Source: Promethearchaeota archaeon
GTDB taxonomy: Archaea > Asgardarchaeota > Lokiarchaeia > Sigyniarchaeales > SOKP01
Reading direction: 5' to 3'
Assembly (NCBI GenBank): GCA_048940645.1
Contig: JBHLOI010000002.1
Coordinates: 1 to 64,000, forward strand
DNA length: 64,000 nt
Of the stretch, positions 1,858 to 4,955 are shown piece by piece (within the stretch, counting starts at the first letter, position 1; every line of letters starts with the position of its first letter). The translations under genes and the position numbers were made by a program. The notes under the pieces were generated by a model. It was not told where the DNA came from and did no database searches. It saw only the letters and a program-made list of their open reading frames with translations.

Positions 1858-2778
1858 ATGTTTAAAGAGAAATTTCATGAAGGTATAATAAGTGCTAGAG
1901 ATTTTACTCGCGAAGATATTGAATACATCTTAAATAAGGCTAGAAAGATGATTCAAAATGACAAAAACTCAGATCTCCTTAAAGGAAAGATTCTAGCTAC
2001 TTTATTTTTTGAACCCTCTACACGAACTCGTTTAAGTTTTGAATCTGCAATGTATAGATTAGGAGGGCAGGTAATAGGTTTTTCTTCAGCAAAAGTTTCA
2101 TCAATAAAAAAAGGAGAAAGTATTGCTGATACAATTCGAACAGTAGAAAATTATAGTGATTGCATTGTTATTAGACATCCCTTAGAAGGAGCAGCAAAAT
2201 TGGCGGCAAAATTTGCAAAAATTCCGATTATCAATGCGGGATCTGGTAGCGGTGAACATCCTACTCAAGCTTTGTTAGATTTGTTAACTATAACCGAGGA
2301 AGGTAAAAAATTGGATGGCTTAAATTTAGGAATCATGGGAGATTTGAAATATGGAAGAACTGTACACTCTTTAGCTATTTTACTCTCAAATTATGACGTT
2401 AATATTTATTTCATAAGTCCTAAAGAATTAATGCTTAGAAATAGAGATAAAGAAATCCTAAGGCAAAGACAGGTTAAATATAAAGAAGTAGAGAAATATC
2501 GAGAGATTTTAGATGTTTTAGATGTATTATATGTAACAAGAATTCAAAAAGAGAGATTTGCTGACGTAGAAGAGTACGATCGTGTCAAAAGTTTCTATAT
2601 TTTTACAAATGAAGATCTTAAAGTTACCAAGGACAATTTCAAAATTATGCATCCATTACCAAGAGTATCAGAGATCTCTGCTGAAATAGATAGCTCGAGT
2701 AAAGCAATTTACTTTAAACAAACTTATTATGGAATACCCTTGAGAAAGGCTATTTTAGCTGAGCTCTTATCATTTTAA
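1858..2778 (+). CDS. pyrB: Aspartate carbamoyltransferase catalytic subunit
   Basis: FFEPSTRTRLSFE, HPTQALLD, GDLKYGRTVHSL, RIQKER, MHPLPR. Confidence 0.98.
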   Translation: MFKEKFHEGIISARDFTREDIEYILNKARKMIQNDKNSDLLKGKILATLFFEPSTRTRLSFESAMYRLGGQVIGFSSAKVSSIKKGESIADTIRTVENYSDCIVIRHPLEGAAKLAAKFAKIPIINAGSGSGEHPTQALLDLLTITEEGKKLDGLNLGIMGDLKYGRTVHSLAILLSNYDVNIYFISPKELMLRNRDKEILRQRQVKYKEVEKYREILDVLDVLYVTRIQKERFADVEEYDRVKSFYIFTNEDLKVTKDNFKIMHPLPRVSEISAEIDSSSKAIYFKQTYYGIPLRKAILAELLSF

Positions 2779-2784
2779 AAAGAA

Positions 2785-4722
2785 TTATTCAAGATTAAAT
2801 GCCGTTAATTTTGATTTAGAAAAATAATCAATTATATTTCTTATTGAAGATGTGTTTTCATGCATATGGTAACTAAAAATTGCTCCCCCATTAAGAATTC
2901 TTTCAAATTTCTTAAAGATTGAAATCTGTCTTTCAATTGGTAAATTTGATTCTTTTCTTATAATATTCATCGAGTAACCTTTAAATTTTTCCCCTTGAGG
3001 GACAACTATATTGTTCCATGATGTATTTAAATAGTCACCGCTATGAGGTTGACTTAAAATGTAATTCTCATCCTCATCTTGAGCTTTTTCTTTAATTATT
3101 TTTTTTATCAGAGAGATGATTCTTAAAGCAAATTTTTGACTAGTATCAATTCGATCAATTTCAATTCCACAGTGAATTTTAATAGCTTCATTTAGACCAA
3201 AAAATGATATAGATTTTAAAGAATTCTTCAGCCAATTGGATCTGTTCTCATTAAAAAAATTGCTTACTATTTCATTCCATTCATTTAATGATTTCAATTT
3301 CTTATGAATTAATTTATTTTTAATTTTATAAATTTCAAATAATTGCCCCAATCTCTCTTTAATAATTTCAAGAAATTTATCATCATTTTGACTACTCTGT
3401 AAAGCTATTGAATGTAAATTAATTAAAATTTTATCTAATATTATTTTATTTTTTGTAATATCACATTTATGATTTGATTTTATGTTTATGATTGAGGAAT
3501 TTAATAAGTTTGAGTTTTTATTATAAAAAATAAAGTATTTTTTTAGTTTTGGAATAATGTGATCGTATAAAAAATCAAATTTAGCTCCATTTAAATTTGT
3601 ATAATCTAACAATACTAAAGGAAATTGATATTGGAGCCGTGAATTTATACTTGAGCTTAAATTTATGAAAAATTGATGATCTAAATGGTTAACAAGTTCA
3701 CTAGAAAATTCTAATGTAAAAGGACATCCTGATTTTAACATCTGATTAAATAATAAGCTAAATAAATTAATTTTTTCATCTTTAATATCAAGAATAGGGA
3801 GAAAACACCCATTAAAGCCACCAAGTAGAATATCATTTGAAAAGTAAGGTTTAAATTGAGAAATTACATCAAAGAACTTTAAGATTAACCTTAAGCAATC
3901 AGATATTTTGGTTATATTATTGTATTCAATCTTATAGATTTTTTGAAGAAATTGTAATATTGACTCTGTGGTTATATAAAAACCCAATGGTCTCAAACTC
4001 CAGTAGCTCAAATTTATAAGTGCCAATTCTCCAGATAAATACAAATCAGCTAAATCATTTGGAAGAAGATTCAATAGAAGAAATTGTTCAGAAACATCAT
4101 ATCCCAATCTTTTTATAAATTGTTCTGGATTAACGAGATTATCTTCAAATAGTTTAAAAGCTTCATATGGAGGTGTTCCTAATCGAGTGAGTTTATGTCT
4201 TACTTTTTCCAAACCATTTTCCAATAATACAGCATTAATATATTCTCTCATTAAAGGAGCTGTAAAATATTCAATATTAGTTTTGGAAAGGCGCTCTTCA
4301 ACTTCTTGTGCGATTTGTTTTGCCTGAAAAACATCCATTTCTCCTTCTTTAATCAGGTATTCTTGAATTTTATTGATGTTAAATGGTTCTTTTGAGTACT
4401 TAGATGTTCTGATCATTATTGTCTTATTTTGAGCGTTAATAATCTGTTCCATTGATATGATATTTTTTAGAATTTTTTTCGCAAGGATTGTGATTTGATA
4501 ACCATCTCCTAAGGATTCAATTAGTTTACTTTCCTTAAGAGTTTTCAAATGAAACGATAGGTTTATTTTAGTTCTATTTATATTAGAGATTTCCTTTTGA
4601 AGTATTGAATAAGGTAAAGGAACTAAAGAATTATTCAATTTCTTTAAGATATCAATCCTTATTTTCTGACCTAATATCCGTAAATGCTTTTCTAGCAACA
4701 CAGGATTTTTGTCGACTCCCAA
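2785..4722 (-). CDS. ArsR-type wHTH + ATP-cone + degenerate class III (NrdD-like) ribonucleotide reductase barrel; probably catalytically inactive
   Basis: N-terminal RIDILKKL...NLSFHLKTLKESKLI (wHTH); IRTSKYSKEPFNINKI...TAPLMREYINAVLLENG (ATP cone); TRLGTP, ADLYLSGEL, SISFFGLNEA, LNGG (NrdD-like); no C-terminal Zn ribbon or RxxGY glycyl loop; TTG start. Confidence 0.75.
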   Translation of the reverse strand: MGVDKNPVLLEKHLRILGQKIRIDILKKLNNSLVPLPYSILQKEISNINRTKINLSFHLKTLKESKLIESLGDGYQITILAKKILKNIISMEQIINAQNKTIMIRTSKYSKEPFNINKIQEYLIKEGEMDVFQAKQIAQEVEERLSKTNIEYFTAPLMREYINAVLLENGLEKVRHKLTRLGTPPYEAFKLFEDNLVNPEQFIKRLGYDVSEQFLLLNLLPNDLADLYLSGELALINLSYWSLRPLGFYITTESILQFLQKIYKIEYNNITKISDCLRLILKFFDVISQFKPYFSNDILLGGFNGCFLPILDIKDEKINLFSLLFNQMLKSGCPFTLEFSSELVNHLDHQFFINLSSSINSRLQYQFPLVLLDYTNLNGAKFDFLYDHIIPKLKKYFIFYNKNSNLLNSSIINIKSNHKCDITKNKIILDKILINLHSIALQSSQNDDKFLEIIKERLGQLFEIYKIKNKLIHKKLKSLNEWNEIVSNFFNENRSNWLKNSLKSISFFGLNEAIKIHCGIEIDRIDTSQKFALRIISLIKKIIKEKAQDEDENYILSQPHSGDYLNTSWNNIVVPQGEKFKGYSMNIIRKESNLPIERQISIFKKFERILNGGAIFSYHMHENTSSIRNIIDYFSKSKLTAFNLE

Positions 4723-4955
4723 TTTATTATTAATATCATTTTATTTCTTTCAATTTCGTTAACCAAATTATGATTTTATCGATATATAAAAATTTAGGAA
4801 TATTTTTACTCTGGAATCTATTCCGATAATATGTAGGTGATATTTAACAAAATTTTTTGATTAAAAAAAAGAACACCAATAAAAAAGACATATTAACTTT
4901 AGAAGAAATAATTTAATATTTAGAATAAGTTAATTATTAAAAGTATCATACTATT

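Follow-up and report, generated by a model that had tools for sequence, protein, structure and literature searches.

Background

Class III ribonucleotide reductases (RNRs) of the NrdD type (PF13597, TIGR02487; structures 4COI, 8P23, 9D3X and 1H7A) consist of an ATP-cone followed by a ten-stranded barrel. MGCR and MCCR are the two dominant finger-loop motifs among 1,375 class III sequences, and the beta-A Cys is conserved in 92.6% of class III sequences (PMC9669993). The HxHD motif binds the substrate triphosphate, and the basic dyad of the ATP-cone beta-hairpin, Lys7/Arg8 in PcNrdD, touches the triphosphates (PMC11226230). The bacterial RNR-specific repressor NrdR (TIGR00244; PMC9110341, PMC12176259) combines an ATP-cone with a Zn ribbon, but it is rare in archaea (PMC9110341), and the control of archaeal RNR genes is therefore largely unknown. 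In this study we analyse a gene at positions 2785-4722 (minus strand) of a 64,000-nucleotide stretch of DNA, called the window below, from a Promethearchaeota archaeon (GenBank assembly GCA_048940645.1, contig JBHLOI010000002.1, positions 1 to 64,000). The gene encodes a winged helix-turn-helix (wHTH) domain, an ATP-cone and an NrdD barrel without catalytic residues. With somewhat better than even confidence, and on sequence-based evidence, we propose that this non-catalytic class III RNR paralogue is a one-component nucleotide-sensing transcription factor with NrdR-like logic. Its own gene and the RNR genes are its probable targets, and it is probably coupled in some way to pyrB.

Results

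Domain organization and predicted fold

The window corresponds to contig C52 of a 3.83 Mb assembly (29.8% GC, estimated to be 89.6% complete); the handles C, G and L used below for contigs, genomes and loci are our own. The open reading frame codes for 645 amino acids, with its stop codon at 2785-2787 and a TTG start, and the aligned start position is ATG in orthologues. Pfam recognizes the wHTH as DUF7347 at residues 14-87 (4462-4683; 29.2 bits against a cut-off of 27.6), the ATP-cone (PF03477) at residues 102-174 (4201-4419; 26.4 bits against 25.8) and NRDD (PF13597) at residues 429-641 (58.1 bits against 26.2, E 8.9e-16). A conserved linker and helical segment (residues 175-250, 3973-4200; RHKLTRLGTPP ... 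LADLYLSGELALINL ... LRPLG), which stands out by its invariant columns and its ratio of nonsynonymous to synonymous substitution rates (dN/dS), connects the cone to the alpha/beta barrel (residues 251-645, 2788-3972), which was assigned by Foldseek and residue mapping. The PF13597 match spans profile positions 279-501 of 562 only; a preliminary description of this DNA had placed the end of the protein before the Zn ribbon and the glycyl loop, and the chain indeed ends at profile position 501, with no Zn ribbon visible in the 645 residues. The NCBIfam equivalog model for NrdD, TIGR02487, gives 43.9 bits, far under its cut-off of 326.35 bits. For the winged helix, Pfam HTH_20 and NCBIfam HTH_metalloreg are both under their cut-offs, and TIGR00244 (NrdR) is absent from the NCBIfam matches of the protein. 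The strings quoted in the preliminary description (LTRLGTPP, LADLYLSGEL, SISFFGLNEA, LNGG, LRPLG and QPHSG) were all found in the translation.

Two AlphaFold2 models were searched with Foldseek. The full-length model, built from a 21-sequence alignment, has a mean pLDDT (predicted local distance difference test) of 74, and its top matches are exclusively class III RNRs, with TmNrdD (4con, E 3.3e-15) followed by the enzymes of S. thermophilus, P. copri and T4. In the model of residues 1-195 (58 sequences, pLDDT 84), the first domain is similar to ArsR (6j05), CzrA (1r1u) and the NolR-DNA complex (4omy), with template modelling (TM) scores of 0.64-0.71, and the model also matches the ATP-cones of NrdR (7p37, 9fxk), NrdB (5olk) and StNrdD (9d3x). 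When the profile of the superfamily was compared with the PDB, StNrdD (1.3e-30), TmNrdD (7e-26) and ArsR 6j05 (5.5e-4) were found. The order of domains given in the preliminary description is thus borne out by Pfam and the predicted structures together, with the N-terminus being a winged helix of the ArsR/SmtB type. The recognition helix of this domain contains invariant residues, for example H58. At the K-R dyad position of the ATP-cone the protein has R105-T106, as matched by motif position and not by residue-level structural alignment; the pair is invariant, and R-T also occurs at this position in the canonical NrdD of the same lineage.

Searched singly against PDB sequences, the wHTH and ATP-cone pieces gave chance-level matches only (a dynein regulatory complex subunit and Ku70), and therefore profiles and folds were needed. 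The Ku70 match, to its SAP region (1jjr), is a weak phmmer match (E 8e-5) to the last ATP-cone helices, residues 137-174 (4153-4431, minus strand), and is probably a chance helix-extended-helix resemblance.

Loss of the catalytic residues

To locate the catalytic positions, 125 sequences were aligned with canonical Asgard NrdDs, with TmNrdD as the anchor. The beta-A (bottom-face) Cys of RPFC is lost, the sequence being RPLG at residues 244-247. The thiyl-radical Cys is also lost: the finger-loop position reads NLLNS (residues 405-409, 3496-3510), with L407 where active NrdDs have xCCRx or xGCRx, and it aligns with QCCR of the lineage's own NrdD and with NLCRL of a distant wHTH homologue. C420, the sole Cys near the finger loop, is not conserved. 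Furthermore, NLPR is changed to NLHS, TPAE(S) is replaced by QPHSG (residues 558-562, 3037-3051), the HxHD motif is lost with GELALINL in place of G.IHIHD, and neither CxxC pairs nor an RxxG[YF] motif occur anywhere in the 645 residues. Both the loss of the Cys after LRP and the degraded PAES motif, noticed in the preliminary description, were confirmed by the alignment; the Cys after LRP is the beta-A Cys, and the radical-carrying Cys of the finger loop is a separate residue that is lost too.

The closest relative has a copy of the wHTH-NrdD protein that is 92% identical, and its canonical NrdD keeps RPFC, QCCR, NLPR, the Zn ribbon and SRITGYY. Since all these features are kept there, the catalytic losses are specific to the wHTH paralogue. 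Judged from its sequence, the protein cannot reduce nucleotides by the known mechanism. The preliminary description had also considered that a separate gene might supply the radical domain and restore activity. A C-terminal radical piece encoded on its own was looked for in the assembly and not found, and activity cannot be restored by any separate gene, since the barrel itself has lost the thiyl Cys, the beta-A Cys and HxHD.

Conservation and selection

Among 68 genomes sampled from the family of the source organism, 65 have a strong match (E 1e-114 or better) to the wHTH-NrdD protein, while in the remaining three the matches are weak only and either fall on other NrdD paralogues or have no position among the matches listed. 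Leaving aside fragments at contig ends, the open frames among the matches listed are 636-714 residues long. In nine orthologue pairs the overall dN/dS is 0.12-0.23, with values of 0.04-0.46 for the winged helix, 0.04-0.13 for the ATP-cone, 0.01-0.13 for the segment after it and 0.13-0.36 for the barrel. Across the whole superfamily, the ATP-cone's second half and the next linker form the most conserved stretch. The least conservation, and many indels, are seen in the N-terminal half of the barrel. The barrel has also acquired new invariant residues, for example QPH at 558-560, C518 and D523-R524.

These data bear on the idea, already raised in the preliminary description, that the gene is only a decaying, truncated pseudogene, or else an annotation artefact. 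The missing C-terminal domain and the low score for the NrdD equivalog would fit such an idea, but the frame is intact, all domains are under purifying selection, the same architecture occurs in hundreds of genomes and the promoter elements are conserved (see below). The pseudogene reading is ruled out by the conservation in the family and by dN/dS, and we regard the probability of decay or artefact together as negligible. It is also highly improbable that the protein is an enzyme which uses the barrel for a new, non-radical activity. Purifying selection on the barrel and its new invariant residues would be expected from such an enzyme; on the other hand, the known nucleotide-phosphate and radical residues are all lost, the N-terminal half of the barrel is the part that varies most, and fusion to a DNA-binding domain is typical of regulators.

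The wider superfamily

A survey across archaea, suggested in the preliminary description, found the same architecture far outside the family. With clustering at 50% identity, an exhaustive profile search gave 880 representatives with E<1e-3 and 215 with E<1e-30, and at least 591 loci were found in a scan of one genome per species. In nearly all full-length members the cone is preceded by about 100 N-terminal residues and the thiyl Cys is missing. The superfamily was found in Promethearchaeum syntrophicum MK-D1, Ca. Lokiarchaeum ossiferum, Culexmicrobium, Bathyarchaeia and Nitrososphaerota, and the metagenome-assembled genomes (MAGs) that carry homologues are named as Promethearchaeota, Hodarchaeota and similar Asgard groups. 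The C-terminus comes in three types. The source organism's family has no tail, members from Jordarchaeia/Freyarchaeota, Atabeyarchaeum and Nitrososphaerota carry a Zn ribbon and a degenerate Gly loop, and a third type has an alternative YxRYFGxY tail. In a FastTree tree of 64 sequences without an outgroup, the canonical NrdDs group in a single clade, with the wHTH forms on all remaining branches. If the tree is rooted at the canonical clade, the Zn-ribbon type would branch first and the tail-less type would be the most derived.

Public records label these proteins either as "anaerobic ribonucleoside-triphosphate reductase" or as "ArsR family transcriptional regulator". A description of the family was not found in the literature searched, where the sole paper on NrdD and Asgard archaea concerns Tn7 attachment sites, and the combination of winged helix and dead NrdD has probably not been described as a regulator before. 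In another Asgard family (f9; for example G236:C5:178080-178649, G134:C63 and G143:C20), many NrdD-like matches lie in frames of 800-1400 residues with one in-frame TGA, which is possibly a selenocysteine codon, an intein or a frame break.

Other ribonucleotide reductase genes of the genome

Working RNRs are encoded elsewhere in the source genome. It has a class II RNR on contig C11, consisting of an ATP-cone and an adenosylcobalamin-dependent ribonucleoside-triphosphate reductase (TIGR02505, 418 bits against a cut-off of 340; 1l1l, E 6e-114), and an NrdG on C92 (TIGR02495, over its cut-off). A canonical nrdD is present at C7:1-1101, but only its first 367 residues are encoded before the contig end, and the C-terminal half of the protein is not in the assembly. 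Because of this cut, the genome would seem from the assembly alone to be without an intact NrdD; a full NrdD of 713-722 residues is present in each of five relatives. No NrdR was found in the genome, the sole TIGR00244 match being a weak ATP-cone cross-match on the class II RNR gene.

A further dead NrdD paralogue, the second in this genome, was observed outside the window, at C94:73903-75729 (minus strand). It has 609 residues with an ATP-cone but no winged helix, and lacks the beta-A Cys, the finger-loop Cys, the Zn ribbon and the Gly loop. It nests within the family's canonical NrdD clade and is present in four of the five relatives checked. A stretch of 52 residues, covering the ATP-cone's second half and the linker, is 100% identical between this paralogue and the canonical NrdD on C7, while the DNA of the two genes is only 74% identical over the first 300 nt, which suggests that the identical stretch may be a shared interaction surface. 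In one relative (L090/L091, G207:C13:43441-46683), the class II RNR match is split in two, with query residues 1-450 and 449-583 separated by about 1.5 kb within one open frame of 1251 residues; this looks like an intein insertion.

A box shared with the nrdD and class II genes

The wHTH-NrdD gene shares a short and rare box, CGA(C/T)AAAA, with the leaders of both RNR genes. In the gene itself, CGACAAAA lies at codons 3-6 (4707-4714, minus strand), and a variant, CGATAAAA, lies right after the TATA-like TTTTTATATA (4774-4781, minus strand); the same variant occurs at -47 of the class II gene. CGACAAAA is found 85 nt before nrdD, together with an imperfect inverted partner, TTTTGTCT, and twice before the class II gene, at -273 and -262 with 11-nt spacing. 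The exact 8-mer has 91 copies in 3.8 Mb, and the class II tandem is the only pair within 40 nt. From 3,397 crude gene upstream windows, just 2.2% contain a sense CGAYAAAA, and it is present for all three genes, the chance of which is about 1e-5 before correction for motif discovery. Lone intergenic copies of CGACAAAA are also found before an RPA-like gene, TFB, small GTPases and an Lrp/AsnC regulator, and these are possibly chance matches.

Conservation in other genomes is an observation independent of how the box was discovered. The position of the box is kept in 18 of 19 orthologues of the wHTH-NrdD gene, including loci where it is untranslated. For example, in L036 (G216), G008 and G171 a TAA separates the ancestral TTG start from a downstream ATG, so that the N-terminal DKN peptide is not made, and yet the CCGACAAAA box is kept in the DNA. 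Since the box persists even at loci where translation misses it owing to a stop codon or a later ATG, the constraint acts on DNA or RNA and not on the peptide. In the nrdD leaders the box is an island of identity in all five relatives, and in the class II leaders it is kept at both positions in four of five. The neighbouring family has the reverse box, TTTTGTCG, in part as tandem copies, 110-146 nt upstream of the gene. Rfam finds nothing in the leaders of the wHTH-NrdD, nrdD and class II genes.

The positionally conserved box at the gene's own start also bears on the explanation that the protein is a non-catalytic regulatory subunit, which would pair with active NrdD (through the dimer interface or the ATP-cone) or with PyrB and would use its winged helix for protein contacts. 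The high conservation of the ATP-cone's second half and the linker, and the 52 identical residues in the two other NrdD paralogues, are what such a subunit would predict. A DNA box is not, and the winged helix resembles DNA-bound structures of the ArsR family and has invariant residues in its recognition helix. We consider this explanation quite unlikely.

A second upstream element, ATATCACCyAsATAwTATC, is located 5' of the B recognition element (BRE) and TATA box (4824-4844, minus strand). It is conserved and unique in the genome. With at most 3 substitutions allowed, a regular expression for this 21-nt element hits the aligned position in 17 out of 18 orthologous promoters; in L024 the match lies elsewhere, and it was left out of the position weight matrix (PWM). 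The element (ATATCACC..ATAWTATC) was tried as a regulon signal and rejected, because the PWM gave no other convincing site in the genome, where the runner-up falls inside a coding region on C77, and no site in the more distant loci; it therefore defines no regulon.

The pyrB neighbourhood

Upstream of the wHTH-NrdD gene and on the same strand lies a cluster of rpoA2, L30e, NusA, S12 and S7. On its other side is pyrB, which encodes the catalytic subunit of aspartate carbamoyltransferase (1858-2778, plus strand; TIGR00670, 374 bits against a cut-off of 237). The two genes converge with their stop codons 6 nt apart, in agreement with the preliminary description. The pairing had been mentioned there only in passing and is far more conserved than that remark implied. 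In the organism's own family pyrB is the immediate neighbour at all informative loci, always convergent and with gaps of a few to some tens of nucleotides. In the neighbouring family it is co-directional and directly upstream, with gaps of 15 nt in G285, about 90 nt in G282, about 190 nt in G089 and, measured to the pyrB stop, about 17 nt in MK-D1 and about 40 nt in Lokiarchaeum. The spacing in the last two is compatible with an operon, and the two genes are apparently co-transcribed there. In G007 pyrB is likewise co-directional and upstream, and the canonical nrdD also abuts the wHTH-NrdD gene. A convergent pyrB with pyrI divergent from it is found in Atabeyarchaeia, another Asgard family, two Culexmicrobium genomes and one Nitrososphaerota MAG. 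Counted outside the own family, adjacency to pyrB occurs in at least five Asgard families, with varying orientation. Two Asgard families do not have it, and the gene there follows an HMG-CoA synthase/thiolase operon. In the source genome pyrI is unlinked from pyrB (C117:30573-31079, minus strand; TIGR00240, over its cut-off); in other lineages it lies beside the wHTH gene and diverges from pyrB.

Because the adjacency outlasts changes of orientation and spans phyla, it argues for a functional tie between the two genes. It could be taken further, in that the protein might be mainly a regulator of de novo pyrimidine synthesis, a functional analogue of PyrR, with the RNR box belonging to another factor or being coincidental. 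Besides the breadth of the adjacency and the operon-like spacing in MK-D1 and Lokiarchaeum, this is consistent with locus L159, where a pyrB-then-wHTH gene pair has a TTTTGTCG box about 106 nt upstream. No operator that explains the adjacency was found, though, and in the own family neither the box nor any other motif links the pyrB promoter to the wHTH-NrdD gene. Moreover, the genes are convergent in most lineages and hence have no common promoter, and the adjacency is missing from two Asgard families. A role mainly in pyrimidine synthesis is therefore unlikely in our judgement.

Discussion

Proposed role

We return to the proposal of a one-component transcription factor that senses nucleotides. 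The ATP-cone, and perhaps also a remnant effector site at the NrdD dimer interface, would bind (deoxy)nucleoside triphosphates ((d)NTPs), and the ligand state would alter the oligomerisation or the domain arrangement, as happens in NrdR and NrdD, whereupon the winged helices may bind or release the CGA(C/T)AAAA boxes at the protein's own gene, at the canonical nrdD and at the class II RNR gene. Binding at boxes downstream of TATA, in the leader or at the gene start, would repress or tune dNTP synthesis. The conserved pyrB adjacency, with its apparent co-transcription in places, suggests that the sensor's expression could be tied to pyrimidine synthesis de novo, or that in some lineages pyrB(I) could be a further target. 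The broader proposal, in which an ancient archaeal regulator derived from a dead RNR reads the (d)NTP pool through the ATP-cone and a relic effector site and coordinates nrdD and class II RNR with pyrBI, is put forward tentatively, at clearly less than even confidence.

Several observations weigh against the proposed factor. The ATP-cone barely passes the Pfam cut-off and its dyad reads R-T instead of K-R, so that binding of ATP or dATP is not assured. The box was discovered on the same three genes that it serves to link, and in most promoters it is a single 8-9-mer, not a palindrome of the type bound by ArsR dimers. In the own family it is always in the sense direction, in leaders and downstream of TATA elements, and could for this reason act at the RNA level or be bound by another factor. 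It was not found at the pyrB promoter of the source genome, nor near the gene in MK-D1, Lokiarchaeum and Atabeyarchaeum, and the NrdG gene and the second dead paralogue have no exact box.

If the proposal is true, a large family now labelled as anaerobic ribonucleoside-triphosphate reductase would be the missing archaeal regulator of RNR genes, in the place that NrdR holds in bacteria. The mislabelling inflates the counts of class III RNRs in archaeal metabolic reconstructions, Asgard archaea included. The family would further be a case of an enzyme turned into a transcription factor with living intermediates, in which the Zn ribbon is kept and the thiyl Cys is lost, and its conserved place beside pyrB indicates that pyrimidine synthesis and dNTP supply are linked in a way not recognised so far. 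Its presence in two cultured Asgard archaea, MK-D1 and Lokiarchaeum, makes the idea testable.

Comparison with known systems

When compared with NrdD, the protein has the same fold and descent, with the ATP-cone followed by the ten-stranded barrel, the motifs LTRLG.P, LAD..LSG, INL..IA, FxGLNEA and LNGG in co-linear order, and a score above the Pfam gathering threshold. The differences are the extra winged helix at the N-terminus and the absence of the finger-loop Cys, the beta-A Cys, HxHD, PAE, the Zn ribbon and the glycyl loop.

The resemblance to NrdR lies in the joining of a DNA-binding module to an ATP-cone and in a short box that its own gene and the RNR genes have in common near the transcription start; by analogy, nucleotide load would control DNA binding in both. 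On the other hand, the DNA-binding parts are not homologous, an ArsR-type winged helix standing in place of the Zn ribbon, a whole dead RNR barrel is included, and the box is unrelated to NrdR boxes. With the ArsR/SmtB repressors (6J05, 1R1U and 4OMY) the protein shares the fold of residues ~10-95 and a weak profile similarity (E 5.5e-4), but it has no evident metal sensing and is fused to about 550 further residues. PyrR, the regulator of bacterial pyr operons with the fold of uracil phosphoribosyltransferase (UPRTase), is likewise an enzyme-derived sensor encoded beside pyrB or in an operon with it. There is no homology between the two, however, and PyrR binds RNA and retains residual catalysis, whereas here a DNA-binding domain is carried on a dead barrel.

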